A DNA stretch of 64,000 nucleotides, taken from the NCBI GenBank assembly GCA_963749565.1, contig CAVVNL010000021.1, positions 14,111-78,110 on the forward strand, written 5' to 3'. The position numbers and the translations under genes were made by a program. The DNA is from an uncultured Acidobacteriota bacterium. Its GTDB lineage: Bacteria > Acidobacteriota > Vicinamibacteria > Vicinamibacterales > CAVVIG01. Positions 20,208-55,106 of this stretch are shown one piece after another. Position 1 is the first letter of the stretch; each line of letters opens with the position of its first letter. The notes under the pieces are model-generated. The model saw only the letters and a program-made list of their open reading frames with translations, had not been told where the DNA came from and did no database searches.

Positions 20208-20209
20208 CC

Positions 20210-20280
20210 CGAATTGATGATTGCAGATTGCATGATTGCATGATTCTCTGATTGCTGACTGAATCTGCGTTGCAGACTGA
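20210..20280. repeat. Word array (GATTGCA/TGATTGC units) between ffs and the dnaX start
   Basis: Sequence is gaattgatgattgcagattgcatgattgcatgattctctgattgctgactgaatctgcgttgcagactg. On the minus strand it ends …CAATCATCAATTCGGG-ATG(dnaX). Confidence 0.7.
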
Positions 20281-20392
20281 ACCGCGGCCCGGAGGTCCTG
20301 CGGCACATGTCAGGATCTGCTTAGCGCTGCTGCCTTCCGGCCCTGACGCGGTTCGCAGGCTGAAATTGCACAGGTTCCGGACCGCGGTGCAA
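20278..20392 (-). ncRNA. ffs: Signal recognition particle RNA (small bacterial 4.5S-type)
   Basis: The minus strand reads …CGCGUCAGGGCCGGAAGGCAGCAGCGCUAAGCAGAUCCUGACAUGUGCCGCAGG…. This matches the E. coli 4.5S domain IV (…GGUCAGGUCCGGAAGGAAGCAGCCAAGGCAGAUGACGCGUGUGCCGGG…). The termini ACCGCGGUCCGG / CCGGGCCGCGGU pair. It lies upstream of dnaX, as in many bacteria. Confidence 0.8.
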
Positions 20393-20423
20393 TCCGCAAC
20401 GCTTCGCGAGTGTACTACGTTTT

Positions 20424-21275
20424 CTAAAGCGGCACGCGCGTGGCGAGCACCAGGTACTTCGCCAGCACCTCGCCGACGACGACGGTGAAAAAATCGACGT
20501 AGAGAATGCCGGTCGCCGACTGCGTCGAGCGAATCTTGGCGGTCTCCCACGTCAGATAGGACAGCACCGCGGGGCCGGCGAGGCCGAACAGCACGCGCTG
20601 CCAGAAGAAGATGCCGTCGACCGACATGATGTAGCGGCGAAAGCTCCCGACGTTGATGCCGACGGAGCCGGGCCGGCCTCCCACAACGCGATTCCCGCGA
20701 ACACGGCGGCGCCGACCACCACGATCCTGAACACCATCGAGGCGATGTGGAGCTTGACGATCGACTGGAGGTGCCTGACCTGGAGCGACGGGATGACGAG
20801 GTACCAGTGGCCGAGGATCATCGCCGTGCAGGCGCCGCCGAGCAGCGCCGCCGAGCTGAGGAAGCTGACGGCGGTGAGGAGCTGCATCGGCACGGTGTCG
20901 CCGGCGGTCAGGGCGACTCGCCTGGAGGACGACGGCGAGCAGGCCGCCGCCCACGGCGATCGCCAGGATGGCCGGCCGGATCCGGGCGAGCGTGCGTCCG
21001 ACCGTCGCCCAGTAGAGGACGAAGCGCGGCCTCGGCGACGACGAGTGCGACCAGACCGACCCCTTCGAGCCCGACGGTCCGGCCGGGTCCGCCAGGCCCG
21101 ATAGCCCCACCAGGCCCTGCCGCTCCCTGGTACGGAACGCCAGCGCGATCGCGATCAGGATCGCGGCGAGCCCGGCGTTGAAGCGGAAGAACTTCACGCC
21201 CGCCTCGCGCGACACGAACACGAGCGTGAGGGCGATGCCGACGCCGAGGTGGCTGAGGAAGAGGAAGAGGATCAT
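20424..21275 (-). CDS. Polytopic membrane protein of unknown function (fragmented)
   Basis: N- and C-terminal TM segments are in ORF 20424-21275. The middle is in ORF 20552-20893 (…[55 protein letters not shown]…). There are at least two frame breaks. Confidence 0.5.
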
Positions 21276-21277
21276 CA

Positions 21278-21368
21278 GGCAGGAGGGGCAGGAAGGGCAG
21301 GATCGGCGGGAATTGAACGGGCATCATGGCCCGTTCCTGCCTTCCTGCCCGTTCCGCCGATCCCGCCC
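21278..21368. repeat. Complex complementary word repeat (GGCAGGAAGG / CCTGCCTTCC and ATCGGCGGGA / TCCGCCGAT)
   Basis: The central stem GAACGGGC-atcatg-GCCCGTTC is flanked by segments arranged A-B…A'-B' rather than nested. The 3' end of the SOD ORF runs into the repeat. Confidence 0.7.
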
Positions 21369-21976
21369 CGTGATTACGCGCAGCCGCTTGTTGATCTCGG
21401 CCCAGTTGACGACGTTCCACCAGGCGTCGATGTAGTCGGGCCGGCGGTTCTGATACTTGAGGTAGTAGGCGTGCTCCCAGACGTCGACGCCGAAGACGAC
21501 CTTCTTGCCTTCCATCACCGGGCTGTCCTGGTTCGGGGTGCTCTCGATGGTCAGCTTGTTGCCGCTGCTCGATCACCCAGGCCCAGCCGCTGCCGAACCG
21601 GCCCACCGCCGCTTTCTTGACCTCTTCCTTGAACTTGTCGAAGCTGCCGAACGACGAGGTGATCGCGTCGGCGATGGCCCCGGTCGGCTGCACCGCCCGC
21701 GTTCGGACCCATGATCTGCCAGAACATCGAGTGGTTCACGTGGCCGCCGCCGTTGTTGCGGACCGCCGTCCGGATGTCTTCGGGGACGCTGTTGATGCCC
21801 TTGAGCAGATCCTCGATGCTCTTCGACTGGAGCTCGGGGTGCTTCTCCAGCGCCGCGTTGAGATTGGTGACGTACGCGTTGTGGTGCTTGCCGTGATGGA
21901 TCTCCATCGTCTGCTTGTCGATGTGCGGTTCGAGCGCATCGGATGGATAAGGGAGAGGGGGAAGCGAGTGAGCCAT
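21324..21976 (-). CDS. Fe/Mn superoxide dismutase
   Basis: [32 protein letters not shown]… (in the ORF 21551-23101 frame), …FGSGWAWV… (20908-21693) and …[19 protein letters not shown]… (21324-21518). There are two frame breaks. Confidence 0.85.
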
Positions 21977-22026
21977 CGGACGTCCTCCTTGTCGGGTCGA
22001 TAGACCGGAGCGATCGGTCACTTCGC

Positions 22027-23193
22027 TCAGTCGTGAATAGACAACATCCGGTCGAGCGCGACCCGCGTCCAGTGCTTCTGCTCGTCGGGGACGACGATGC
22101 GGTTGTGGACCTCGCCGTCGAGCAGCCCTTCGAGCACCCACAGCAGGTGATTCGGCGAGACGCGGAACATCGTCGAGCACAGGCAGCCGAACTGATCGAG
22201 CGACAGCACGGTGCGGTCCGGGCGCGACCTGCTGCGCGAGGCGATTGACCAGGTGGATCTCGGTGCCGACCGCCCAGACCGAGCCGACCGGGCTTTCCTT
22301 GACGCGGTTGATGATGTATTCGGTCGAGCCCGAATCGTCGGCCGCCTGCACCACGTCCCACGGCACCTCTGGATGGACGATGACGCGAAGGCCGGGATGC
22401 TGCGCGCGCATGATTTCGATCTGCCGCACGGTGAACCGCGCGTGAACCGAGCAGTGGCCCTTCCAGAGGATCATCCGCGCCTTCTTGACCGCGTCCGGCT
22501 CGAGCCCGCCCCAGATCTCGTTGGGATCCCAGACCACCATCTGGTCGAGCGGCACGCCAAGCTTGTACGCGGTGTTGCGGCCGAGATGCTGATCGGGCAG
22601 GAACAGGATGCGCTCGCCGCGCTCCCACGCCCACTTCAGCGTGGCCGCCGCGTTCGACGACGTGCAGACGACGCCGCCGTGCTCGCCGCAGAACGCTTTG
22701 ATGGAGGCGGCCGAATTGATGTAGGTGACCGGGACGACGCCCGGATCGTTCTCGCCCGGAGCGGCTCCTCCGTGGAGGATGCCCATCTGCCCGAGATCGT
22801 TCCAGCACATCTCGAGCTGATCGGGCGCGGCCATGTCGGCCATCGAGCAGCCGGCCGCGAGGTCCGGCAGGATCACCTGCTGATGCGGCGCGCTGAGCAC
22901 GTCGGCGCTCTCGGCCATGAAGTGCACGCCGCAGAAGACGATGAACTCGGCGTCGGGATGCTGGCTGACCTGGCGCGCGAGCTTGAACGAGTCGCCGGTG
23001 TAGTCGGCGAACTTGATCACTTCGTCGCGCTGGTAGTGGTGGCCGAGGATGACGAGGCGGCGGCCGAGCTTCGCCCTGGCGGCGGCGATGCGCGCGTCCA
23101 TCTCCTCATCGGACAGACCGAGATACGCTCGGGGAGCGGCTGGCGCTCGCCGATGTGCTCTTTCTCGTAGGCGGTCAGGAGAGGAATCAGCAT
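22027..23193 (-). CDS. nadA: Quinolinate synthase NadA
   Basis: …[28 protein letters not shown]…[11 protein letters not shown]…[13 protein letters not shown]… The C-terminal part is in ORF 22027-22209. The N-terminal 20 aa or so ([24 protein letters not shown] at 23193) are in a third frame. There are two frame breaks. Confidence 0.85.
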
Positions 23194-23254
23194 TTTCGTT
23201 CGCGAAACCTACTGGCTTGTGAAACTTTTCGCAAGCCCCTCTAACAGTATAGCA

Positions 23255-23340
23255 CCGGCTTCGGGCTTCATGAGCTCAGGGCTTCGGGCTTCAGGCTATG
23301 GGCTTCAGGCCGGCCTGAGCCCATAAGCCTAGAGCCCAGA
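23255..23340. repeat. Word hairpin built from GGGCTTC(A/G)G units
   Basis: GGCTTCAGGCTATGGGCTTCAGGCC|GGCCTGAGCCCATAAGCCTAGAGCC is an imperfect stem of about 25 bp centred at 23310-23313, preceded by further direct GGGCTTC units. It lies between the nadA start and the end of the mqnE-like gene. Confidence 0.8.
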
Positions 23341-24451
23341 TGTCAGTTCGTCGTGCTGCGTGCTCGATGACGTTGTAGAGCGTGTCGCGCTCGACCGGCT
23401 CGCGGCCGGCGGCCCTGATGAGGCGCTCGATCTCGCGCGGCGTCATCGCCTCGGGCGTGCGCGCGCCGGCCATGTGATAGATCTTCTCTTCCTGCACGGT
23501 CCCGTCGAGATCGTCCACGCCGAACCACAGCGCCGTCTGCGCCACTTCGACGCCGGTCGCAATCCAGAACGCCTTGACGTGCGGGATGTTGTCGAGCATC
23601 AGCCGCGACACCGCGTGGACGCGCAGGCTGTCGGCCGCGCTCGGCGCCGGCAGCTTCCGCATCTGGTTGTTGTCGGGGTGGAACGCCAGCGGGATGAACG
23701 CCTGAAAGCCGCCGGTTTCGTCCTGCAGCGCCCGCGCCCGCAGCATGTGATCGACGCGCTCTTCCGCCGTCTCGATGTGCCCGTACAGCATCGTCACGTT
23801 GCTGCGCATGCCGAGGCGGTGAGCGGTGCGATGGATCTCGAGGTAGCGCTCGGTGCCGCACTTGTCGTGGGCGATCTTCCGGCGCACGCGGTCCGCGAAG
23901 ATCTCGGCGCCGCCGCCCGGCAGCGAGTCGAGCCCCGCCGCCATCAGCTCGCGCAGCACCTGCTCGTCGGTCATGCCATACAGGTCGGCGAAGAACGCGA
24001 TCTCGACCGCCGTGAAGCACTTCAGGTGGATGCCGGGACGGATCCGCTTGAAGCCCCGCAGCATCTCCGTGTAGTAGTCGAACGGCAAATCGGGGTGCAG
24101 GCCGTTGACGACGTGGACCTCGGTGAGCGGCTGGTGGGCGCGCTTCCGCAGCTTGTCCCACGCCTCCTCGAGCGACATCGTGTACGCGCCCGGATCGCCC
24201 GGCTTGAGCCGCGCGAACGAGCAGAACAGGCAGCTCGCCACGCAGACGTTGGTCGCTTCGAGGCGGATGTTGTAGTTGTAGAAGGTGCGATCGCCGTGGC
24301 GCTTCTCGCGCTCCCGGTTGGCCAGCGCGCCGACGGCCAGGAGATCCGGCGCCTCGAACAGGCGGACGCCGTCGTCCAGGTCGAGGCGCACGCCGGCGTC
24401 GAGCTTGTCTGCGATGTCGAGGAGGCCGGCGGAGGCGAGGCGAGCTTGCAA
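23291..24451 (-). CDS. Radical SAM futalosine-pathway enzyme, MqnE-like (aminofutalosine synthase) or MqnC
   Basis: CxxxCxxC cluster motif (NVCVASCLFCSF) with family-typical …LHPDLPFDYY…, …GGGAEIF…, …MLYGHIET… A TTG start at 24451 is proposed (upstream residues are repeat-encoded). The C-terminal tail is repeat-encoded. Confidence 0.7.
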   Translation of the reverse strand: MQARLASAGLLDIADKLDAGVRLDLDDGVRLFEAPDLLAVGALANREREKRHGDRTFYNYNIRLEATNVCVASCLFCSFARLKPGDPGAYTMSLEEAWDKLRKRAHQPLTEVHVVNGLHPDLPFDYYTEMLRGFKRIRPGIHLKCFTAVEIAFFADLYGMTDEQVLRELMAAGLDSLPGGGAEIFADRVRRKIAHDKCGTERYLEIHRTAHRLGMRSNVTMLYGHIETAEERVDHMLRARALQDETGGFQAFIPLAFHPDNNQMRKLPAPSAADSLRVHAVSRLMLDNIPHVKAFWIATGVEVAQTALWFGVDDLDGTVQEEKIYHMAGARTPEAMTPREIERLIRAAGREPVERDTLYNVIEHAARRTDIWALGLWAQAGLKPIA

Positions 24452-24546
24452 TCGGGTAATCGGGTAATCGGGTAATTGGGTAATTGGATTGCTCAATTGC
24501 CACAATCAATTACCCGATTACCCGATTATCCAATTACCCAGATTGC
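24449..24546. repeat. Long word hairpin built from GGGTAAT(C/T)G units with CAATTG-containing centre
   Basis: The left arm atcgggtaatcgggtaatcgggtaattgggtaattggattg and the right arm caatcaattacccgattacccgattatccaattacccagat flank the loop ctcaattgccac. Confidence 0.85.
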
Positions 24547-24553
24547 CGTGCCG

Positions 24554-25057
24554 TCAGGAGATGCCGAAGATCTGGATTCGCAGCGACCGCGCGCGCGGGC
24601 CGTCGAGCTCCGCCATCAGGATGCGCTGCCATTGCCCGAGCACGACTTCCCCGCCGCTGACCTGCAGCGTCAGGTTGTGGCCGAGGAGCAGGGCGCGGAG
24701 ATGCGAGTCGGCGTTCATCCGATCGCAGTCGGAATGATCCGGATTGTTGTGCAGCCACTCGGCGTCGCGCGCGACCATCTGCTCGAGGAAGCGCTTGATG
24801 TCGGAGAGCAGCGCCGTCTGGAACTCGTTGATGAAGAGGGAGCAGGTCGTGTGCATCGACCAGAGGCTGACGAGCCCTTCGCGCATGTTGAAGCGCTTCG
24901 ACGAACTCCATCACCTGATTGGTGAGGTCGACCAGCTCGATCCGCTGATCGGTCTGATGACCAGCGTCTCGCCATGAATCGTAAGGCCGCCAACCGTCGC
25001 TGTCGCCACCTCTTCGACGGGCCGCTCGCGAACGGTGACGGTCGAACTCTTGCTCAT
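24554..25057 (-). CDS. yjbQ: YjbQ/UPF0047-family protein (secondary thiamine-phosphate synthase)
   Basis: …WSMHTTCSLFINE…HLRALLLGHNLTLQVSGGEVVLGQWQRILMAELDGPR… (ORF 24554-24886). The N-terminus MSKSSTVTV… (ATG at 25057) is in other frame(s). There are frame break(s) at about 24890-24960. Confidence 0.75.
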
Positions 25058-25194
25058 GCGGGTTCCTCTTGGCTGTTATGGAGTGTCCAGGTGCGAACAG
25101 GACATGTTACGCAAAAAGATGCACCCTGAGGCAACTCGCGCCTTCCGGTATACTCCGGCTAGTCCGGGCCTCGTACCGGACACTTACGATACCT

Positions 25195-25440
25195 TGACGT
25201 TCGCCCCGGCGGCCACGCGAAGTGGGTGCGAAGCCCACACGGTCCCGCCACTGTAAGCGGCTAGCGACGCTACGCTCTGGTCCCTGGTTCCTGGTCCTTC
25301 GTGCTTGGTCAGGTCCTTGGTCCCGCCACTGAGCCGCTGGCTTGGGAAGGCGCACGTAGATCGCATCGATCCGCGAGTCAGGAAACCTGGCCATCGGGGG
25401 CGTCCTTTTCCCGGCGCGCAAGACGCCGGAAGGAGCCCGG
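25195..25440 (+). promoter_or_regulatory. Cobalamin (B12) riboswitch with candidate SD-sequestering platform
   Basis: Core elements: GGTGCGAAGCCCACACGGTCCCGCCACTGTAAGCGG (25224-25260), GCCACTGAGCCGCTGGCTTGGGAAGGCG (25324-25351) and the B12 box AGTCAGGAAACCTGGCC (25376-25392). These are followed by the hairpin GGCGTC…GACGCC and the SD GGAAGGAG before the ATG at 25441. Confidence 0.8.
25276..25325. repeat. Direct word repeat (GGTCC(C/T)TGG units) inside the riboswitch variable region
   Basis: Sequence is ctggtccctggttcctggtccttcgtgcttggtcaggtccttggtccc, lying between the CTGTAAGCGG and GCCACTG riboswitch elements. Confidence 0.7.
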
Positions 25441-26118
25441 ATGAGCGTTGTCCCCCCCAAGCCGCGCGCCGCGATCTCATGGAGCGGCGGCAAAGACAGC
25501 TGCGCGGCGCTGCAGCGTGCGCGCGACGCGTTCGACGTCGTGGCCATGATCACGATGTTCGACGAGGACGCCGCGCGCAGCCGCTCCCACGGCCTGCGGC
25601 CCGAGGTGCTCGCGGCGCAGGCCGATCGCCTCGGGCTCCGCCAGGTCATCGGCCGGTGCACCTGGGCGACCTACGACGCGTGCTTCGCGCAGGCCCTTCG
25701 CGAAGTTGCATCCGACTCCGTCACGCACGTGATCTTCGGCGACATCCTGTTCGACGAGCACCGGCGATGGGCCGAACGCATGTGCGAGGACGCCGGCCTT
25801 GCGGCCGTCGAGCCGCTTTGGGGCTCTTCGACGACGACGTTGTTTCACGAATGGGTGGCGTCGGGCGCCGACGCGCTGATCGTCACGACGCGCGCCGCGC
25901 TGCTCGACGACCGCTGGCTGGGCCGGCGACTGAGCGCCGACCTGCTTCCGCTGTTCGAGCAGCTCGGCGTCGACCCCTGCGGCGAGCGCGGTGAATACCA
26001 CACGGTCGTCACCAACAGCCCGTTGTTCTGCCGGCCCCTGAAGCTGCGCGCGAACGGCTCGGTGCAGCGCGCCGACTGCTGGGCGCTCGACATGGTCCCC
26101 GATGCTGCGGGCGAGTGA
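25441..26118 (+). CDS. DUF71/COG2102 PP-loop ATP pyrophosphatase (Dph6 N-domain-like), copy 1
   Basis: Intact 225 aa. It has the PP-loop SWSGGKDS and the family C-terminal motif DPCGERGEYHT. It is the first gene after the riboswitch. Confidence 0.8.
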   Translation: MSVVPPKPRAAISWSGGKDSCAALQRARDAFDVVAMITMFDEDAARSRSHGLRPEVLAAQADRLGLRQVIGRCTWATYDACFAQALREVASDSVTHVIFGDILFDEHRRWAERMCEDAGLAAVEPLWGSSTTTLFHEWVASGADALIVTTRAALLDDRWLGRRLSADLLPLFEQLGVDPCGERGEYHTVVTNSPLFCRPLKLRANGSVQRADCWALDMVPDAAGE

Positions 26119-26967
26119 CATCACGTTCTCGTATGGGCGCCGTCCGGCCGACGAAATCCGGCTAAAGCCGGACACCACGTACCGCAGGCTGACGGTCCGG
26201 CTGAAGCCGGACACTACGCACGGGACGCGTACGTCCTGAAAGGGGTGTCGCTCGAGGTCAAGCGCGGCACGATCGTCGGCCTGCTCGGTCCGAACGGCTC
26301 CGGCAAGACGACGCTGCTGCGCATCATCTCGGGCGTCCTGAAGCCGCTCGCCGGACGCGTGTGGCTCGACGGACGGCCGATCGAGCAGCTGACGCGGCGC
26401 GATCTCGCCCGCCGGGTCGCGGTCGTGCCGCAGGAAACGCACTCGACCTTCGACTTCAGCGTGCTCGACATGGTGCTGATGGGCCGGTACCCGCACCTCG
26501 GCCCGTTCGAGCTCGAGGGCGCCGCCGACCAGGAGATCGCGCGGGACGCGCTGCGCGCCACGGGCACGGCCGCGCTCGACACGCGGGCGTTCGCCACCTT
26601 GAGCGGCGGCGAGAAGCAGCGCGTCGTGATCGCGAGCGCGCTCGCGCAGGCGTCGGACATGCTGCTGCTCGACGAGCCGACGGCGGCACTCGATCTTCGC
26701 TATCAGTTCGAGATTGCGACGCTGCTGCGGGGGCTGAACGTGGAGCGCGGCACGACGATGATCGTGTCGACGCACGACCTGAACCTGGCGGCGGCGCTCT
26801 GCGAGCGCATCGTGCTGCTCAAGCAGGGGCGGGTGCTCGCCCAGGGGCCGACGCGGGAGACGCTGACGGCGGAAAACATCCGCTTGCTCTACGACGTCGA
26901 CGCGGACGTGCAGTTTCATCCGCGCGCCGGTCACCTGACGGTGGTGCCCATTGCCCGAACGAGCTGA
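26102..26967 (+). CDS. ABC transporter ATP-binding protein, BtuD/FepC-type (5' end interrupted by REP-like insert)
   Basis: MLRASDITFSYGRRP (ATG at 26102) is followed by an insert of about 86 nt, then …VLKGVSLEVKRGTIVGLLGPNGSGKTTLL…LSGGEKQRV…LLLDEP… (ORF 26245-26967). The two parts are in different frames. Confidence 0.75.
26157..26212. repeat. Two REP-like stem-loops (TCCGGC-TAAA-GCCGGA and GTCCGGC-TGAA-GCCGGAC) inside the ABC ATPase 5' coding region
   Basis: Elements at 26157-26172 and 26195-26212, each followed by ACAC(C/T)ACG. In one frame they translate as the low-complexity peptide RLKPDTT. Confidence 0.8.
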
Positions 26968-27997
26968 GGCGATCGCCGGATTCCGGCCGCGCACGCCGAT
27001 TCGACGCCGGCTGATGTGGACGCTGGCGGGTTTCGGCACGCTCGCCGCCGGCGCCTGCCTGCTCGCGCCGCTCGTCGGCAGCACGCGCATCAGCCTGGCC
27101 GCGGTGTTCGACCGGTCGATCCCGTACGCCGACAACATCGACGCGCAGATTTTCTTCGTCGCGCGGCTGCCGCGCGTGCTCGCCGCGGCGCTCGTCGGCA
27201 GCGCGCTGGCGCTCTCCGGCGTCGTGTTTCAGGCGCTGCTGCGGAACCCGCTGGCGTCGCCCGACACGCTCGGCGTCTCCGCGGGCGCGTCCCTCGGCGC
27301 GATGATGGCGATCACCTTCGACCTCGATTTCTCGCTGCTCGGCATCTCGGCCGTGCCGCTGGCGAGCTTCTCCGGGTCGATCGGCGCGCTGGCGATCGTG
27401 TACGGCCTGTCGGCGGCCAGACGGCGCGGAACCTCCGCCGTCGTGCTGCTGCTCGGCGGCGTGACGCTGCACGCTGCTGCTGTCGGCGGTCATCGCGTTC
27501 GTGCAGTACCTGGCGGATTTCACGCGAGACGTTCCGCAACGTGCGCTGGCTGATGGGATCGCTCGACGTCGCCTCCTTTTCGCCGATCGTCGCGGCGCTC
27601 GTGCCGATGGCGATCGCGTGGGCCGGATTCGCCACGCTGCCGCGGGTGCTCGATCTCATCAGCGTCGGCAGCGAATCGGCCGCCGCGCGCGGCGTCAACG
27701 TCGAGCGGACGGAGCGCGTCGCGCTCGTCAGCGCGTCGCTGGCCACCGGCGCCGCGGTGTCGCTGGCGGGCCCGGTCTCGTTTGTCGGCATCATCGTGCC
27801 GCACCTCGTGCGGCTGATCGTCGGCGCGGATCATCGGCTCGTGCTGCCGGCGTCGGCGCTCTTCGGCGCCGCGTTTCTCATCGGCTGCGACCTCGTCGCG
27901 CGCACCATCATCGCGCCGCTCGAGCTGCCGGTCGGCATCGTCACCGCCATCATCGGAGGCCCGGTATTTCTTATGGCTGCTGTTCCGCCGCGCATGA
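26951..27997 (+). CDS. FecCD/BtuC-type ABC permease
   Basis: …RLPRVLAAALVGSALALSGVVFQALLRNPLASPDTLGVSAGA… (ORF 26951-27553), then …GPVSFVGIIVPHLVRL… (the 27016-28635 frame). The terminal FLWLLFRRA* is in a third frame (TGA at 27995-27997). There are at least two frame breaks. Alternative start: ATG at 27014. Confidence 0.8.
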
Positions 27998-28874
27998 AGC
28001 TCGTTCGCGTCGATCGCGCTCGTCGTCCTTGCAGGCTCGCGGCGTCTCTCGAGGCCGCGGGCGCCGGCGCCCAGAGCGCCGAGGGACCCCGCCGCATCAT
28101 CTCGCTCGTGCCCGCGACGACCGAAATGCTGTTCGCGATGGGCGCAGGCGACCGGGTCGCCGGCGTCAGCAACTACGACCGCTTTCCGCCGGAGGTCGCG
28201 CGGCTTCCGCGCGTCGGCGGACTGCTCGATCCGGACGTCGAACGGGTGCTGTCGCTGAAGCCGGACCTCGTCATCGTCTACGACACGCAGACGGATCTGA
28301 AGCGGCAGCTCGAACGCGCCCGCATTCCGATCTTCGGCTACCGGCATCGCGACCTGCGGGACATCACCGAGACGATGCGGGCGCTCGGCGCGCGCATCGG
28401 CGCCAGGGCTGCCGCGGACGCCGCGGCGAGCCGCATCGAACAGCAGCTGGCCGCCATCGGGACGCCGCGTCGCAGGCCGGCCGAGGCCGAAAACGCTGCT
28501 CGTCTTCGGGCGGGAGCAGGGCACGCTGCGCCACATCAACGCGAGCGGCGGCTACGGATTCCTCCACGACGTCCTCGAGCTCGCCGGCGGCGCCAACGTG
28601 CTCGCCGATCTGCACGAAGCAGGCGGTCGACATGAGCACGGAGATGGTCCTGACGCGGGCGCCCGAGGTGATCCTCGAGCTGCACTACGGCGATTCGCTC
28701 AGGCCCGAGCGGCTGGGCCCGGAGCGGCTGGTGTGGAACGCGCTCGCGTCCGTCCCGGCGGTGAGAACCAATCGCGTCTACCTGCTCGGCGGCGACGAGT
28801 TCGTCGTCCCGGGGCCGCGGATCGTGATCGCGGCGGAACGGTTTGCGCGGACGCTGCACCCGGAGGCGCGATGA
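27994..28874 (+). CDS. Periplasmic cobalamin/siderophore-type substrate-binding protein (BtuF-like)
   Basis: ATG at 27994 overlaps the permease stop (ATGA). …RRIISLVPATTEMLFAMGAGDRVAGVSNYDRFP…LKPDLVIVYD… The C-terminal part is in ORF 27501-28874 (…RTNRVYLLGGDEFVVPGPR…). There are several frame breaks. Confidence 0.75.
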
Positions 28875-28900
28875 CGTGGCCGACGCCCGAATCTGGTCAT

Positions 28901-28950
28901 CTGGTCATCTGGTTATTTGGTCATTGATTGGGGATTTGGGTCGATTGTTG
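28901..28950. repeat. Left arm of GGTCATCTGG-word inverted repeat flanking the four-helix-bundle gene
   Basis: aatctggtcatctggtcatctggttatttggtcattgattggggatttgg is near-identical to the reverse complement of 29346-29395. Confidence 0.85.
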
Positions 28951-29315
28951 AGCGCAGGTTGGTGCGGGCAGTGCGCAGCGAGCTTCGCGAAGATCGCGCG
29001 CAACTCGCTCGCTTCGGCGCGCGCGGGATCGCACGTCGAGACGGCGAGAAGCTGCGACTTCGGTCGATGACATCGAGCCAGTAGACGCGATTCGTCGGTT
29101 TCTTCGACGACGATCTGAGCTTCGCGATGAACTCGAGCTCGCGAGCGAGCGCTGCACGCAGCGCGATAGTTCGCGCCGACTGACGTGGCACTTTTTGCCA
29201 ATTGTCGGCCGATAACCTGGCCGCAGGCGCATGAGGAAACTTGTCGATCAGCCGTAAGACCGTGAGCGCAAAAGAGATCGTCCGTTGCTTTCAATTGCTC
29301 GCTCTGAGCGCTCAT
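28905..29315 (-). CDS. Four-helix-bundle protein (23S rRNA IVS-protein / Avd-like family)
   Basis: …IGRQLAKSATSVGANYRAACSARSRA (ORF 28905-29357), then EFIAKLR… and …VYWLDVI… (the 28913-29191 frame), typical of TIGR02436-type proteins. There is one frame break near 29130. Both ends abut repeat arms. Confidence 0.65.
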   Translation of the reverse strand: MSAQSEQLKATDDLFCAHGLTADRQVSSCACGQVIGRQLAKSATSVGANYRAACSARSRARVHREAQIVVEETDESRLLARCHRPKSQLLAVSTCDPARAEASELRAIFAKLAAHCPHQPALNNRPKSPINDQITR

Positions 29316-29345
29316 AGCGATCGATTCACATACATGCCAGTCGTA

Positions 29346-29395
29346 CCAATCCATCAATCAATGACCAGATAACCAGATGACCAAATGACCAAATG
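29346..29395. repeat. Right arm of GGTCATCTGG-word inverted repeat
   Basis: Sequence is ccaatccatcaatcaatgaccagataaccagatgaccaaatgaccaaatg. Confidence 0.85.
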
Positions 29396-30080
29396 TATGA
29401 TTTCCTGGTCGAGCGGCAAGGACAGCGCGTGGATGGTGCACGTGCTGCGGCGGCGTGGTGACGTGCAGCTGGCTGGATTGTTGACGACCATCAACGAGGC
29501 CGCGGAACGGGTGGCGATGCATGCGGTGCGTGTCGACGTCCTGGAGGCGCAGGCAGACGCACTGGGGCTGCCGCTGTGGAAGATCCCCATTCCGTCGCCG
29601 TGCCCGAACGAGGTCTACGAGCGCGCGATGGGTGCGGCGGTCGCCCGTGCCGTCGCCGAGGGCTTCACCCACATGGCGTTCGGCGATCTGTTCCTCGAGG
29701 ACGTCCGGCGCTATCGGGAGGAACGGCTCGCGGGCACGGGGCTGACGCCGCTGTTCCCGCTCTTCGGCGCCGACACGGCAGCGCTTGCCCGCGACATGAT
29801 CGCCGGTGGCCTTCGTGCCCGCATCACCTGCCTGGATCCCAAGGTGATCGATCGATCGTTTGCCGGCCGGGAGTTCGACCACGCGCTTCTGGCGGAGCTC
29901 CCGCCGGCAGTCGATCCGTGCGGCGAGCGCGGCGAGTTCCACACCTGCGCCTACGCGGGCCCGATGTTCCACCACCCCGTCCCCGTCGAAACGGGCATCA
30001 TCGTCGAGCGGGACGGGTATGTCTTCACGGACCTGACGTTGGCGACAGAATCCAGTCAATCTGGTCATTTGGTCATCTAG
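29385..30080 (+). CDS. DUF71/COG2102 PP-loop ATP pyrophosphatase, copy 2
   Basis: PP-loop SWSSGKDS and C-terminal DPCGERGEFHT. The first 4 codons and the last 10 or so are repeat-encoded (a start at ATG 29397 is also possible). Confidence 0.8.
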   Translation: MTKCMISWSSGKDSAWMVHVLRRRGDVQLAGLLTTINEAAERVAMHAVRVDVLEAQADALGLPLWKIPIPSPCPNEVYERAMGAAVARAVAEGFTHMAFGDLFLEDVRRYREERLAGTGLTPLFPLFGADTAALARDMIAGGLRARITCLDPKVIDRSFAGREFDHALLAELPPAVDPCGERGEFHTCAYAGPMFHHPVPVETGIIVERDGYVFTDLTLATESSQSGHLVI

Positions 30081-30161
30081 TCATCTGGTCATTGATTGGG
30101 GGATTGAACGGCTCAATCTTCCAATCAATGACCAGATAACCAGATAACCAGATGACCAAAT
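30057..30161. repeat. Long word hairpin (GGTCATCTGG units, arms of about 40 bp)
   Basis: ctggtcatttggtcatctagtcatctggtcattgattgg, then a loop containing GATTGA-acggc-TCAATC, then ccaatcaatgaccagataaccagataaccagatgaccaaat. Confidence 0.9.
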
Positions 30162-30176
30162 ATCCGCAATCGGATT

Positions 30177-30947
30177 GTGTGTCTCACCGAGGAGACCACC
30201 GAGACGCTGTACCTCCTTGGCGAAGGCGACCGCGTGGTCGGTGTGTCCGGATACACCGTGAGGCCGCCTGAAGCGCGCAGCAAGCCGAAGGTATCCGCAT
30301 TCATCAGCGCGAAGTTCGACCGCATCGAGGCGCTCCGTCCCGATCTCGTGCTCGCGTTCTCCGACCTGCAGGCGGACATTTCCGCCGAGCTCGTGAAGCG
30401 TGGCATCGCCGTCATGACGTTCAACCAGCGCACCGTCGCCGAGATTCTGCAGATGATCCAGATCGTGGGCGGGCTGGTCGGCTGCCAGGATCGAGCCGAA
30501 CAGCTGGTAAATCGCCTGACCGCGAATCTCGATCGGATCCGCGAGTCGGCGGGGCGCTTTCCGACCCGGTTGCGAGTCTTCTTCGAGGAGTGGGACGACC
30601 CGTTGATCTCGGGGATTCGATGGGTCGAGGAGCTGGTCGCGATTGCGGGCGGCGATGCGATTTTCCCCGAGCTGGCTGAGGCGCGCCTCGCACGCAACCG
30701 TATCGTGGCCGTTTCAGAGGTTGTCCGGCGGAACCCGGAGGTGGTGTTCGCCTCGTGGTGCGGCAAGAAAGTCCAGGCGGCGAGGATCCGCGAACGAGAC
30801 GGCTGGGATCGCATCAGCGCGGTGGTTCACAACCGAATCTTCGAGGTCAAATCGACGTACATCCTGCAGCCGGGCCCTGCGAGCCTGACGGAGGGCGTTG
30901 GCCGGATTCATCATGTTCTGTGCCAGCTCCATGGCCTGTCCCCTTAG
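30177..30947 (+). CDS. BtuF-like cobalamin-binding protein lacking a signal peptide
   Basis: It begins directly with the first beta-strand (R-I-)VCLTEETTETLYLLGEGDRVVGVSGY… …LRPDLVLAFSD… and is intact. GTG at 30177 (ATT at 30174 is possible). The upstream in-frame stop at 30150-30152 leaves no room for a signal peptide. Confidence 0.75.
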   Translation: MCLTEETTETLYLLGEGDRVVGVSGYTVRPPEARSKPKVSAFISAKFDRIEALRPDLVLAFSDLQADISAELVKRGIAVMTFNQRTVAEILQMIQIVGGLVGCQDRAEQLVNRLTANLDRIRESAGRFPTRLRVFFEEWDDPLISGIRWVEELVAIAGGDAIFPELAEARLARNRIVAVSEVVRRNPEVVFASWCGKKVQAARIRERDGWDRISAVVHNRIFEVKSTYILQPGPASLTEGVGRIHHVLCQLHGLSP

Positions 30948-30996
30948 CTGTTATCCTTTACGTCCATAATGTCCTTGTGATGATCGAGCGCGGCGC

Positions 30997-33900
30997 ATGA
31001 TGCCCCTCTTCCTTCACGCGCCCACCCGCCGAATGGCCCGCACGGCCCTCCTGTGCGCGTTGTCGCTCGCACTTTCCTCTTCCCCGCTTTGGGCCGGGGC
31101 ACTCTCGGAGGATGTACCTGTTCCAGGCGGGACGGCGGCGTTGGCCCGTGTGCTCGGCCTCGACCCGGCCCCCGAGCGCGCACGGTTCATGACCGAGCTG
31201 ACGCGCGTCGTCTACGACACGCCCGAAGGGACGAGCGCGGACACTGATGCGTTGTCGCTCCGGCTAACCAGCTACCTGCAGGCGATCGATCAGCTGCAGA
31301 AGGCGCTCACCGCCGTGCAACCAGTCGGAGGGTCGATCGCGTTGTCGATGGCGCGGAGCAGGAACGACCGCCGGCGGCTGGAGACCTTTCTCCAGACCGT
31401 GGGTCTCCGTCTCCGCGAGCGGAACAAGGCGTTCACCGTCGAGCGGCTCGACACCACGCAGGCGGAAGAGCGCGTCGCCATGCTCGCCAGCCTCGGGATC
31501 GAAGTAGAACAGCTCGCGGCGCGGTTGAACGGCGGCGAAGGTGTCCGCGTGGAAGTCCGAACCGAGACCGTTCCGGTACCGCTTACCCTCAAGATCTGGA
31601 GCGGCGCGGTCCTCCGGCAACCGGTGGGAATCGGAGATCTGTTTGCGACGCTCATCGGCGATCGGCAGGCGGCGCTCCTCAGCCACGGTCTCGCCGCGCT
31701 CGACGACGAGACGCTCGCCTTCCTCGGCGATCGCCCGGCGCTGCTGCGTGGATTTTACGAACGCGACGCGGCGGTGTTCGCGGCCTTCGCTGGAAGCCTG
31801 CGCATCCGGAACAACGCACTCGTTCTGCCGGGCGGCGATGCCGCGAGACCGCTTTGGGAGGCGGCGGTCGGCGAACCGGTCGCCAGGCCGGACCGCTTCA
31901 TCCGAGAGCTGTTCGCGCGGGCCGAGGGTCGCGTCGCGTATCTATACGACGCATTCGCCAGGTTCGACACTCCGACCCGGGCGTTCGCGCTGGGACTCTG
32001 GATGGAGGGCCCGATTCGCCGTGTGGAACGGTTCGAGGCCCTGGTCAATTCTGTGGCCGCATTCCCCGGATGGACGTTGCCGGAGCGGTCCTTCCGGCGT
32101 CCACCCGACGATCCAGTGCTGATGCTCCTCCGCGTCCCGGCAGAGGCGAACGGCGAGCCGAAAGCTCCCTCCTGGCGTGCCTTCTGGTCGCAGGTCTTCG
32201 AGAGCAGCGACATCCCGGACGATCCAGAACGCCGGGTAAGGAACGTCCAGGAGGACGGCCGCATCGACGCGGGATGGCTTGCCGAATCTGGTACTGGCCG
32301 CCGACCTGCCGTCGCGTGGCGAGCGACTCGACCAGCTCGCGTTCGGCCTGCGCGCCTTCGCCGCTTCTGACGATCGCATGCTGGCCGACATGCTGGTTGC
32401 CGTCCGGGCCTTTCCACGCTACCGCATGCTGATGCTTACGCTCGAACGCATGGGCATTGCGAATCCGGCGGTCTATGCGGCAGCCGCACGGCACGCCGTC
32501 CGCCTATCGGATCTCGGTGCCGAACGCGGGTTCGTCGCGCTCGGCCAGTTCCAGGGCGCGCTCGCGATCCTGGCGAGACAGGCGGATGCGCAGGTTCTCG
32601 ACGCCGCACGGACGGAATCGCTGGTCACGTCGTTGTCGGCCGTCCCGCTCACAGATGGGGCCTACGGCGGCGGCATCGCGCGCTGGCTCCGGGACTCGCT
32701 CGCCCCGCTCGCGGGCATCGAGGCCGGCGACGTCGACAACTTCGACAGGGAGCTCATCGCGTCGCTCGCCGGCCGGCGCCCGGGCGCGTCTCTTCCCCCG
32801 ACGCTCGTGTCCTGGGAGCAGAGGACGTACGCGCTCGATCTGCCGACATCGGAGGCCCGGCGCCTGACGCGCGTGCTCGAAATACTGCAGGCCGATCCCG
32901 TCAGCCTGGCGCTGGCTGTGGAAGCAGTCGCGGAACAGCTTTCGAGCCCGAGCCTCACCCTCGCGCAGGTGCAGGAGGCCGCGGCTGGACTGAAGGCTCT
33001 CCAGAGCGCACTCGATGCGCGGCCAAATCGGCAGGACATCGTCCGGCGGGCGATTCGGGATCTCTCGGAGGTGACGGCACCCAGGGATCTCCGAGACGCC
33101 GCCAAGGTTGCCGATTCCGTCTACGCGCTTGTCGACGATGTGCTCGCGGGCACGTTGATGTCGGTCGCGTACGCCCTTCACTCCGGCGTGCCTCAGGGAA
33201 CAGCGCTCGCGTCCAGCGTCGTTCGCCGGCACGACTTCGGCTTCGGCGACAACAGCCCGGACTCGCGCGTACGAACGGCGTGGGTCGAGCCGGTTCAGAA
33301 GATCCAACCGGGCGTCCCCTGGCACGTGAGCGGCTCGCTGCTCGGGCTGGACCTCGGGCTCTCGTCGCTGGCGCTCCGCCGCACGTCGCTCGGCGCACTG
33401 CCTGGACCGCCGACACTCAGGTCCGCGGACAAGGACATCTTCACGAAGACTGTCGCGCTGCTCAGTGTATTCAGGCTGCGCGACACCGAACGCGACGCGA
33501 TCGCCGCGGCCATCGCGCGAGGGCGCGAGCGTGTCGACGGGCTTGCCGCCCGCCCGGACGCTCTGGCCGCGATCGCGAACGACATCGCACTGGACGGATG
33601 GCGGCGCCGCGCCGTCCAATGGTCGCTCGTGAACGACCCGCAGCGGGTGCCGAGCTACTTTTCGCTGGCCGAGCTCGTCCAGCTCGGGGAGCCGAACGCG
33701 ATGGCCGGCCTCCACGCGTGGGGAATGGCGGCGGCTTGCATGTGCACAGCACTGACGCCGCCGGGGCAATGGATGCTCGACGCCGGCCGCTGGCCGCGCG
33801 GCTCGGTGGCCACGCACGTGGCCGATCTCAATCTGCGCGTTGCGGTTGCGCTGAACGAGCTGAAGCTGCCGGCGGCGCTCGCCAAAGGGGTGCTGGCGGC

Positions 33901-34054
33901 GGCAACGCAGGATTACGTCGATCGAGTGAAGCCCCTGTATCCCGACGACTGGCTGACCCTGGTTCGCTCGGCGCAGGCCCTGTCGATTCAAAAGATTCAG
34001 GACTACGTCGCCACGCTCACCGCCAACGGCCCGCTCCTGCCAGAGAGCCCGTAA
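30997..34054 (+). CDS. Large (about 1000 aa) secreted protein of unknown function
   Basis: Signal peptide MARTALLCALSLALSSSPLWAGA. ORF 30997-32370 continues in ORF 32279-34054, with one frame break at about 32280-32370. It is Ala/Leu/Arg-rich and helical, and I recognise no motif. Confidence 0.6.
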
Positions 34055-34133
34055 TCCGGCTTTAGCCAGATTCGGCCCGCCAGATCTGGGATATAAAGGC
34101 TCTCTAACCACTTCCGGGCAGGAGCCAGTAACG

Positions 34134-35282
34134 ATGGTCTCGAGGCCGTTGCACACCGCTCTCGGCATCCTTATCGTGACGGGCGGGGGGCTACTCGGCC
34201 AGGTTGCCACGGAGCGGGTAACGATTGTCTCGCCCGCCGATGGCGAGTACGTGGCGGGCCGGACGATGATTCGCGCGCGCGTGGAGCCGCCGTCCCCCGC
34301 GCCAAGCGTCGTCTTCTTCGTGGACGGCCGCCAGCTGTGCGTCGTGGCCCGCGCGCCATACGAGTGCCAGTGGGATGCCGGCTCGCGGGTCGAGGCGCAC
34401 CAGGTCCGAGTGGCGGCGACATTCGCAAATAGCGCCCGAATCGTCCACAACGTGCGGACGAGAGGCCTCGCCTACGCGGAAGCCGAGAACGTGGACGTCG
34501 TGCAGGTCACGGCGACCGTCACAAACAATGGACGCTACGTGCGAGGCCTCCCGCGATCGGCCTTTCGCGTCTGGGAGGATGAGCGTCCACAGACGATCAC
34601 GCACTTTCAAGCGGAAGACATCCCGCTCGATCTCGTGGTGGCGCTCGATATCAGCAGCAGCATGACCACGGCTCTCCCGAAGTTGAAGGAAGCCGCGAAG
34701 CAGTTCGTCGGGGCGGTATCCACGAGAGACAGGGTGTCGGTGCTCGGGTTCAACGACAGTGTCTTCACCCTCGCGCGCGGCTCTACCGATGTGGCGGACC
34801 GGGTCCAGGGCATCGACCAGCTCGCTCCCTGGGGGGCAACGGCGTTGTACGACGTCATCATCAGCGCCGCGGATATTCTGGGGAACGAAAGCGGCCGCAA
34901 AGCCCTGATCGTGTTCACCGACGGAGAAGATCAAGGCAGTCGCGCGGCCCTCGAAGAAGTCGAGCAGCGGTTGCTCGCGAGTGACGTCACGCTCTACATG
35001 ATCGGCCAGGGACGAGGCACGTCGCTCGAGCCGTTGAAAAAAGTGATGCGCGGTCTCTCGGAGCCGACGGGCGGCAGGGCGCTGTTCACCGACAGGATCG
35101 AGCAGCTCGGCGACGCGTTCACCGAGTTGCTCGAGGAGCTCTCCAATCAGTACCTGCTCGGCTACACCCCCACGAATACGAAGCGTGATGGCGCGCTGCG
35201 ACGCATCAAGGTGGAAGTCGAAGGGCATTCCGGCGTCCGTGCGCGAACCGCGTATCGGATGCCCGCGGCGTCGGATCGATGA
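34134..35282 (+). CDS. VWA-domain protein (acidobacterial TIGR03436-type)
   Basis: Intact 382 aa. It has the MIDAS motif DLVVALDISSSM, …ATALYDVI…, …LIVFTDGEDQGS… and the C-terminal …NQYLLGYTP…R.IKVEV… typical of this family. Confidence 0.8.
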   Translation: MVSRPLHTALGILIVTGGGLLGQVATERVTIVSPADGEYVAGRTMIRARVEPPSPAPSVVFFVDGRQLCVVARAPYECQWDAGSRVEAHQVRVAATFANSARIVHNVRTRGLAYAEAENVDVVQVTATVTNNGRYVRGLPRSAFRVWEDERPQTITHFQAEDIPLDLVVALDISSSMTTALPKLKEAAKQFVGAVSTRDRVSVLGFNDSVFTLARGSTDVADRVQGIDQLAPWGATALYDVIISAADILGNESGRKALIVFTDGEDQGSRAALEEVEQRLLASDVTLYMIGQGRGTSLEPLKKVMRGLSEPTGGRALFTDRIEQLGDAFTELLEELSNQYLLGYTPTNTKRDGALRRIKVEVEGHSGVRARTAYRMPAASDR

Positions 35283-55015: not shown

Positions 55016-55106
55016 AATCTGGTCATTTAGTCATCTGGTTATCTGGTCATTGATCGGTCAATTGATCAATCAATGACCAAATAACCAGATGACCAGATGA
55101 CCAAAT
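55016..55106. repeat. Long word hairpin (GGTCATCTGG units) between iscS and iscU
   Basis: caatctggtcatttagtcatctggttatctggtcattgatcggtcaattgatcaatcaatgaccaaataaccagatgaccagatgaccaaat. Same family as 30057-30161 and 28901/29346. Confidence 0.9.

Follow-up and report, generated by a model that had tools for sequence, protein, structure and literature searches.

A cobalamin-riboswitch-controlled corrinoid uptake and salvage operon with two DUF71 paralogues and a leaderless BtuF-like protein in Vicinamibacterales-like Acidobacteriota

The 64,000-nucleotide (nt) stretch of contig CAVVNL010000021.1 from a soil bacterium of the Acidobacteriota analysed here (the window) contains a cobalamin (vitamin B12) riboswitch that is followed on the same strand by DUF71-1, btuD, btuC, btuF, DUF71-2, and the gene for a BtuF-like protein without signal peptide, BtuF2. 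The locus is a cobalamin-riboswitch-controlled corrinoid uptake/salvage operon of Vicinamibacterales-like Acidobacteriota, and it is conserved in relatives. Taken as a whole, we read it as a riboswitch-controlled uptake operon whose DUF71 enzymes and cytoplasmic binder would amidate corrinoid carboxylates, a reading to which we give a probability of roughly 40%. The core association of DUF71-B12 proteins with btu genes was published in 2012 (de Crécy-Lagard et al. 2012, Biol Direct 7:32; PMC3541065), and the link itself is therefore known; the second, clade-specific paralogue, the riboswitch control across species, and the recurring, sometimes fused, leaderless BtuF-like partner appear to be undescribed.

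For comparison, two near-identical contigs (L001 and L002, each about 95% identical to the contig of the window and, judged from the look of their names, output of long-read assemblers) and a set of short-read relatives (L003-L011, including GCA_003222505.1; DUF71-2 83% identical to that of the window) were used. The short-read relatives encode, in this order, the riboswitch, a TonB receptor (745 amino acids, aa), DUF71-1 (220 aa), btuD (264 aa), btuC (347 aa), btuF (329-336 aa), DUF71-2 (225 aa) and BtuF2 (282 aa), all intact and with 16-25 nt between the last three genes. This conserved operon bears out the linkage of DUF71 to btu genes and riboswitches on which the first-pass annotation of the window had built. 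Its proposed order of six genes on one strand was also found in the window, but the block is interrupted by a minus-strand four-helix-bundle gene and by a 97-nt hairpin; similarly, the btuD, btuC and btuF genes belong to the Pfam families expected of an importer, but each is frame-broken in the window (Table 1). The gene for the TonB-dependent (BtuB-like) receptor is absent in the window (24900-25440, compared with L003:3784-6169), so that the riboswitch abuts DUF71-1 directly; the receptor gene was lost in the window lineage from the position after the riboswitch.

The B12 riboswitch that had been proposed in front of the block was recovered with Rfam: RF00174 matches at 25219-25385 (plus strand) with 57.4 bits (E 1.3e-11), above its gathering score of 31.5 bits, and the strings quoted for it, i.e. 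GCCACTG...GGGAAGGC and the B12 box AGTCAGGAAACCTGGCC, are located at 25326-25393, with the B12 box at 25377-25393, 48 nt ahead of ATG 25441. The match in the window is local (model positions 48-166); in L001 and L002 the model is matched at full length with 66 bits, the riboswitch of L003-L011 scores 60 bits, and the scores across relatives range from 60 to 117 bits. Together, the riboswitches of the window and of 11 related contigs are above the Rfam threshold. The variable P6 extension contains an insertion of about 45 nt with CTGGTYC-like repeats (25278-25325), which is common to the window and L001-L003 and absent in the riboswitches of other lineages. For surveying further loci, a covariance model (R1) was built from eight Rfam-confirmed riboswitches; its score in the window, 130.6 bits, is not independent, since R1 was partly built from the near-identical L001 and L002. 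The model was used in place of a regular-expression screen, three hits of which (L015, L028 and L050) proved to be false positives when checked with Rfam. Just 5' of ATG 25441, the ribosome-binding site GGAAGGAG is located at 25428-25435 and within a predicted hairpin that is not followed by a U-tract; from this fold, the riboswitch would act by translational control, masking the ribosome-binding site.

Both DUF71 proteins score well above the PF01902 cutoff of 23.2 bits (Table 1), and are 33% identical to each other. As described in the first-pass annotation, they are PP-loop proteins distinct from Dph6, with the quoted motifs and no extra C-terminal domains. The Dph6 equivalog model TIGR03679 (cutoff 197.3 bits) gives 88.6 bits for DUF71-1 and 50.6 bits for DUF71-2, and in place of the Dph6 motif EGGE/DxE188 both paralogues have GERGE[YF]H, with His at the position of Glu188. 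The proposal of about 2012 for a DUF71 role in B12 salvage, to which the first-pass annotation refers, exists: the DUF71-B12 subgroup of DUF71/COG2102 was defined by the signature ENGE[F/Y]H, in which His replaces Glu188 of Dph6, and 75 of its 102 members adjoined B12 transporter genes (btuCDF) (PMC3541065). The more general form of this motif, GE-x-GE-[FY]-H, is present in both paralogues, as GERGEYH in DUF71-1 and GERGEFH in DUF71-2, with Arg for Asn. At E<1e-30, the DUF71-2 clade comprises 803 cluster representatives, in which DPCGENGEFH is the dominant motif; among 150 representatives, GENGEFH was counted 48 times and GERGEFH 26 times. In a neighbour-joining tree (a distance method) rooted on two Dph6 sequences, the DUF71-1 clade was recovered with 100% and the DUF71-2 clade with 86% bootstrap support. 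As judged from their sequences, both paralogues are shown to belong to the DUF71-B12 branch, and not to Dph6 itself.

Members of the DUF71-1 clade were seen here only in Vicinamibacterales-like Acidobacteriota, and besides the close relatives DUF71-1 co-occurs with DUF71-2 only in L012 and L013. The nearest solved relative of DUF71-1 by sequence is PF0828 (3RJZ; E 5.8e-16). For DUF71-2, an AlphaFold2 model (predicted local distance difference test, pLDDT, 95.6) has PH1257 and PF0828 as its top eight PDB matches, with template-modelling (TM) scores of 0.70-0.81, and it matches the ATP-bound structure of PF0828. A tandem DUF71-DUF71 fusion was also found (P0282, 458 aa, one contig), the C-terminal half of which is of the DUF71-2 type and the N-terminal half slightly closer to DUF71-1. 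Bacterial homologues of DUF71-1 (P0445, P0466 and others) are called 'diphthine--ammonia ligase' by NCBI; since the Dph6 motif and cutoff fail and, to our knowledge, bacteria have no diphthamide, this label is likely a misannotation carried over by homology.

The genomic context of DUF71-2 was surveyed in 80 species-level loci with orthologues of 56-79% identity. A cobalamin riboswitch was found with R1 in 22 of these, always upstream and on the same strand, and btuDCF is located directly upstream of DUF71-2 in about 18; clustering with B12 transport genes was observed in the window and in L001-L014. Altogether, about 29 loci have some B12 context within 10 kb, and the link of DUF71-2 to B12 is strong, not universal. 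The architectures comprise: riboswitch, receptor, btuDCF, DUF71-2 and, in part of the loci, BtuF2; riboswitch, receptor, PduO adenosyltransferase, DUF6580 membrane protein and DUF71-2; riboswitch, receptor, DUF6580, leaderless binding protein and DUF71-2; riboswitch, receptor and DUF71-2; and btuCDF, DUF71-2, CobO and CobT (L056). The importer of the riboswitch-linked loci hence varies among btuDCF, DUF6580, and a TonB receptor alone. The DUF6580 genes listed in Table 1 lie between the BtuB-like receptor and DUF71-2, under a cobalamin riboswitch and in loci without btuCD, and DUF6580 is a candidate inner-membrane corrinoid permease; for an identity of DUF6580 with BtuM, no relative by sequence was found among solved structures, and no paper on the family was found. 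In a Hyphomonadaceae metagenome-assembled genome (MAG; L042:10001-14777), DUF71-2 directly precedes a corrinoid methyltransferase set, i.e. a URO-D-like methyltransferase, a B12-binding corrinoid protein and a RACo reductive activator, and a riboswitch is also present.

BtuF2 is a class-III binding protein whose PF01497 profile match begins at residue 1, with the N-terminus MTKYP-x-R-IVCLTEETTETL (MTKYP-x-RIVCL). The window contains a single spurious base near 30166, due to which the open reading frame (ORF) listed for BtuF2 begins at GTG 30177; the true start is ATG 30152, from which BtuF2 is in frame in L001 and L002. The earlier claim of a BtuF-like protein without signal peptide at 30177-30947 hence stands after sequence correction, other than in its start. 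The short-read orthologues start 6-9 residues before the first beta-strand (MRAPYPER-IVCLTEE), and among all BtuF2 orthologues 6-13 residues precede this strand, none of them hydrophobic. In the relatives, the BtuF2 frame opens at the stop codon of DUF71-2, which leaves no room for a leader and excludes a signal peptide; a hidden signal peptide in BtuF2 was considered and ruled out by this lack of space in the short-read orthologues. The nearest solved relative of BtuF2 by sequence is BtuF of Vibrio cholerae (5YSC; E 6e-16). Against the BtuF equivalog NF002894 it scores 57.6 bits, below the cutoff of 234, and its homologues are labelled 'cobalamin-binding protein' by NCBI.

Leaderless PF01497 proteins, with Pfam matches from residues 2-8, adjoin the DUF71-2 orthologue in 15 of the 80 loci. 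They represent two divergent subfamilies and are found in Acidobacteriota, a Hyphomicrobiaceae MAG and a Binatia MAG. The BtuF2-type binder (YP-x-R-IVCLTEETTETL) is encoded in Vicinamibacterales-like MAGs and in the Hyphomicrobiaceae MAG, the latter without btuCD or riboswitch nearby, and the 'HECDYP'-type binder in other Acidobacteriota and in the Binatia MAG. The HECDYP-type conserves the motifs SHECDYP and CEVC, and it may be speculated that their Cys and His residues could serve as ligands to the cobalt of the corrinoid. Some loci with a leaderless binder lack any btuCD (L021, L043, L062 and L083); in L021, L043 and L083 the importer is not of the ATP-binding-cassette (ABC) type, and the binder therefore cannot be the periplasmic component of that importer. 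In addition, one protein (P0347, 613 aa; two cluster members, four contigs) is a natural fusion of a DUF71-2-like domain to a leaderless HECxxP-type binder. A second candidate for a BtuF-DUF71 fusion, P0332, was rejected as a frameshifted gene call, given its long low-complexity Arg-rich stretches. The adjacency in several phyla together with the one natural fusion gives real support to the idea, raised in the first-pass annotation, of a 'substrate chaperone'. A literature search on cytoplasmic BtuF-like proteins yielded no paper other than that of 2012 on DUF71-B12, in which the word 'riboswitch' does not occur, 'BtuF' occurs once, and no leaderless BtuF-like partner is mentioned (PMC3541065); relative to that paper, a recurring leaderless binder as partner of DUF71-B12 appears to be new.

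The importer genes encode a type II system of the BtuFCD kind, i.e. a FecCD-family permease, an ABC ATPase and a PF01497 binder, with the export signal seen in relatives, where BtuF carries the clear leader MAPVSNGIKARTAFVALIVVLLGTAKA. In the window, the signal-peptide-like SIALVVLAGS of btuF sits in another frame, and btuF scores 101 bits against the NCBIfam BtuF model, under its cutoff; its ATG overlaps the stop codon of btuC (ATGA). The probable start of btuD is ATG 26105 (MLRASDITFSYGRRP). The btuD genes of the relatives read MLKATDLSFSFARRG...VIDGVSL with no insert; in the window, a REP-like double hairpin (ccggctaaagccgg / ccggctgaagccgg) at 26148-26232 follows the part of btuD that encodes the conserved N-terminal strand, within the 5' end of the gene. 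As sequenced, this insert shifts the frame, at a site where the three assemblies differ by many insertions and deletions (indels). Similar repeats are present in relatives in the spacer between DUF71-1 and btuD and, in frame, after the BtuF signal peptide.

For the function of the operon, the following scheme is proposed. When adenosyl-corrinoid is ample, the riboswitch would occlude the ribosome-binding site at the first gene, lowering expression of the operon; when corrinoid is scarce, the importer would take corrinoids up. The leaderless BtuF2 would bind cytoplasmic corrinoid and hand it to DUF71-2, and probably also to DUF71-1, as a second specificity or as heterodimer partner. The DUF71 enzymes would adenylate a corrinoid side-chain carboxylate with ATP under release of pyrophosphate (PPi), and ammonia or an amine would displace AMP to form the amide, by which incomplete or deamidated soil corrinoids would be made usable. 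Adenylation and amidation of a corrinoid carboxylate is a chemically orthodox guess, and the suggested re-amidation of partly deamidated corrinoids is drawn solely from general PP-loop chemistry. A more specific version, which we regard as tentative and rather doubtful in its full form, is that DUF71-B12 and the leaderless binder constitute a two-part cytoplasmic machine, occasionally fused, for AMP-forming re-amidation or amide repair, with DUF71-1 as second specificity or heterodimer partner and with a transporter-type binding protein re-used as intracellular substrate carrier.

Several points weigh against the amidation of corrinoids. The proposed reaction is an extrapolation from what Dph6 and further PP-loop enzymes do, and no biochemistry of DUF71-B12 was found in the searchable literature past the 2012 paper. 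The hairpin of the expression platform (-30.6 kcal/mol, z -1.7, by RNA folding) is weak evidence alone, and in the window lineage an antisense element inserted behind btuF may uncouple DUF71-2 and BtuF2 from the riboswitch. The authors of 2012 proposed a CbiZ-like role in pseudo-B12 salvage, based on a strict anticorrelation of DUF71-B12 with bacterial CbiZ, which they took as a sign of pseudo-B12 cleavage/remodelling, not amidation (PMC3541065). In such a replacement of CbiZ, the nucleotide loop of pseudo-B12, other cobamides and cobinamide would be removed or exchanged to yield adenosylcobyric acid, followed by rebuilding through CbiB, CobU, CobS and CobT, with BtuF2 holding the substrate. 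The co-occurrence of DUF71-B12 with CbiB and the exchange of the catalytic Glu of Dph6 for His, which suggests an altered reaction (PMC3541065), argue for it, as do CobO and CobT right after DUF71-2 in L056 and PduO in four loci. However, amide hydrolysis would reverse the known PP-loop chemistry and is without precedent, nucleotide-loop genes are adjacent in just one of the 80 loci, and neither cbiB, cobS and cobU nor other cob/cbi genes were seen, by eye only, in the 64-kb window; we consider this explanation unlikely. Less likely still is that the substrate is no corrinoid at all, i.e. that DUF71 genes reside in B12 operons only because B12 status determines whether their product is required or has to be repressed, and that BtuF2 binds haem or another ligand. 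It would account for the majority of orthologue loci, as about 50 of 80 are devoid of B12 genes and riboswitches within 10 kb, and no cobalamin riboswitch turned up in seven of them that were checked with Rfam. It would also agree with the fusions of DUF71-2-clade proteins, which suggest other substrates in parts of this clade: 7 of 20 checked representatives of more than normal length are fused to GNAT acetyltransferases (P0249, P0257, P0258, P0287, P0309, P0311 and P0330), and others (P0251, P0261, P0297 and P0360) to a phosphopantetheinyl transferase, DUF2284, a dual-specificity phosphatase and an RsmD-like methyltransferase; these may be true fusions or merged gene calls. Furthermore, in the fold search the BtuF2 model, which is of moderate quality (pLDDT 69), is equally near to haem, siderophore and B12 binders (all TM 0.66-0.78). 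Against a non-corrinoid substrate, the riboswitch loci embed the gene, co-directionally and with tight spacing, in uptake operons with three types of importer, B12-using and B12-processing enzymes recur as neighbours, and the solved protein closest to BtuF2 in sequence is a BtuF that binds B12.

The frame changes in the window could also indicate a decaying operon, in which the receptor is lost, btuDCF are pseudogenes, and only the DUF71 genes and BtuF2 still work. Indeed, btuD, btuC and btuF are all frame-broken, with at least seven single-base changes in total, whereas DUF71-1 and DUF71-2 have none and BtuF2 nearly none; the gene for the TonB receptor is absent; and one of three +1 changes in btuC (near 27470, 27524 and 27967), that near 27470, is common to the window, L001 and L002. 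The shared change, however, sits in a GCTGCTGCTG repeat run, those at 27524 and 27967 are found in the window alone, and each frame change in btuF (near 28001-28034, 28459 and 28612) is repaired in L001 and/or L002. The indels of L001 and L002 are mostly different, private and of 1 nt, and a majority consensus of the three contigs mends most breaks. The nadA gene (21551-23101, minus strand) and the sodA gene just downstream are broken in the window too; both are intact in L001 and broken in L002, and for DUF71-1 the situation is the opposite, with a break in L001 and an intact frame in L002. Over 16 kb (20000-36000), the density of indels tracks the local strain divergence and is near zero where the three contigs differ by about 1%. 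Third codon positions account for 85% of strain substitutions in btuD, 71-96% in btuC, 48-72% in btuF, 85% in DUF71-2 and 94% in BtuF2. The differing indels, their repair by consensus, their density and this third-position bias thus point to assembly noise without gene decay, and the bias in every gene of the block argues that all genes are functional, with the importer genes under purifying selection. The pseudogene reading of btuDCF was rejected on this three-way alignment, the indel-versus-divergence profile and the codon-position test, and a decaying operon is very improbable. Given the indels in housekeeping genes, gene calls in this window require frame checking.

The coordinates of the features are summarized in Table 1. 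The inserted element between btuF and DUF71-2 contains, at the same site in L002, an intact 130-aa PF05635 gene; the element is missing in L003-L011, where the distance from btuF to DUF71-2 is 25 nt. The octamer-repeat pattern of its arms has 19 occurrences compared with 0.03 expected. An 'empty' copy between DUF71-2 and BtuF2 overlaps the final codons of DUF71-2 and the ATG of BtuF2, and forms a hairpin of -65.4 kcal/mol (z -11.5) that was matched by none of 200 shuffles. The short-read relatives lack the inserted element, the empty hairpin and the REP-like insert of btuD alike.

Table 1. Features of the operon in the window and of the binder and DUF6580 genes at surveyed loci (positions prefixed with L refer to the respective locus)
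Feature	Position	Strand	Evidence and remarks
Cobalamin riboswitch aptamer (RF00174)	25192-25409	+	Rfam match 25219-25385; R1 model over whole span, 130.6 bits
Putative expression platform	25400-25443	+	hairpin pairing UCCUU with AAGGA of the ribosome-binding site
DUF71-1, PP-loop ATP pyrophosphatase, 225 aa	25441-26118	+	PF01902, 132 bits; SWSGGKDS; DPCGERGEYHT
btuD-like ABC ATPase	26105/26245-26967	+	PF00005, 122 bits
btuC-like permease (FecCD family)	27014-27995	+	PF01032, 290 bits with frames joined
btuF-like periplasmic binding protein	27997-28874	+	PF01497, 122 bits with frames joined
Inserted element	28895-29390		inverted arms 28895-28924 and 29361-29390, four GGTCATYT octamers each
Four-helix-bundle gene (23S rRNA intervening-sequence protein family)	28905-29357	-	frame-broken in window
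DUF71-2, PP-loop ATP pyrophosphatase, 231 aa	29385-30080	+	PF01902, 80 bits; SWSSGKDS; DPCGERGEFHT
'Empty' octamer-repeat copy	30062-30158		near-perfect hairpin of ~47 bp, 97 nt, between DUF71-2 and BtuF2
BtuF2, leaderless BtuF-like class-III binding protein	30152-30947 (listed ORF from 30177)	+	PF01497, 141 bits
HECDYP-type binders beside DUF71-2	L021:9123-9998, L043:8689-9606, L045:7454-8359, L071:3950-4353, L079:10858-11805, L083:10654-10989		
DUF6580 membrane proteins, ~180 aa	L021:8792-9160, L030:9372-9971, L043:7459-7998, L064:9469-9996, L072:547-1074, L083:9462-10001		

Another empty hairpin of the (GGTCATYT) type is located at 55021-55102, giving two empty copies and one gene-bearing copy, and a second octamer type, with (GGGTAATC)x3 arms, at 24448-24537. 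The right arms of the octamer repeats provide the ATG and the 'MTK' N-termini of DUF71-2 and BtuF2, and the left arm codes for the residues at the C-terminal end of DUF71-2. The corresponding tail in relatives (...SNRVIG) is made by the GGGTAATC type. In the window, VWA, TPR and unknown genes extend over about 12 kb 3' of BtuF2; relatives do not have them at this position. An ordinary bacterial small signal recognition particle RNA (RF00169, 73.5 bits) was found at 20284-20382 on the minus strand.

Most B12-requiring microbes cannot make B12 and depend on corrinoids released by others, and the corrinoid forms that are usable shape soil and gut communities. DUF71-B12 is widespread and, since 2012, a predicted salvage enzyme, whose function becomes easier to test with the leaderless partner and the fusion at hand. 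If the pair does repair or remodel corrinoids, the salvage pathway would gain a step, and the binder would be a rare instance of a periplasmic-type binding protein acting inside the cell.

In comparison with known systems, the DUF71 proteins resemble the DUF71-B12 subgroup as described, i.e. N-type PP-loop ATP pyrophosphatases that are about 220 aa long and lack the C-terminal domains of the eukaryotic proteins, with its motif and the clustering with btuCDF (PMC3541065). They differ in that two paralogues of separate clades are encoded per operon, in having Arg in the motif where the paper has Asn, and in the leaderless partner, which is absent from the text of that paper (PMC3541065). With Dph6 (PF0828 and PH1257; PDB 3RJZ, 3RK0, 3RK1 and 2D13) they share the fold (TM 0.7-0.8 for the DUF71-2 model), the PP-loop, and the presumed adenylation of a carboxylate followed by amidation, whereas the EGGE/DxE motif is replaced in both DUF71 proteins of the window and the residues that bind elongation factor 2 (EF-2) are not conserved in DUF71-B12 (PMC3541065). 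The E. coli-type BtuB/BtuFCD system is alike in its TonB receptor (here in relatives), type II ABC importer, BtuF with signal peptide and 5' cobalamin riboswitch; unlike that system, the genes form one operon here, with extra cytoplasmic enzymes and a second BtuF-like protein without signal peptide, and the window lineage lacks the receptor gene. CbiZ, the adenosylcobinamide/pseudo-B12 amidohydrolase, is a hydrolase for which ATP is not needed. It occupies the same niche, in salvage operons beside btu genes, and is reported as mutually exclusive with DUF71-B12 in bacteria, but its fold is unrelated to that of DUF71. The corrinoid amidotransferases CobB/CbiA and CobQ/CbiP belong to de novo synthesis. 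They catalyse the ATP-dependent amidation of corrin side-chain carboxylates, as proposed here for DUF71, but with an unrelated fold, with glutamine used via an amidotransferase domain, and with ATP converted to ADP and phosphate, not to AMP and PPi.

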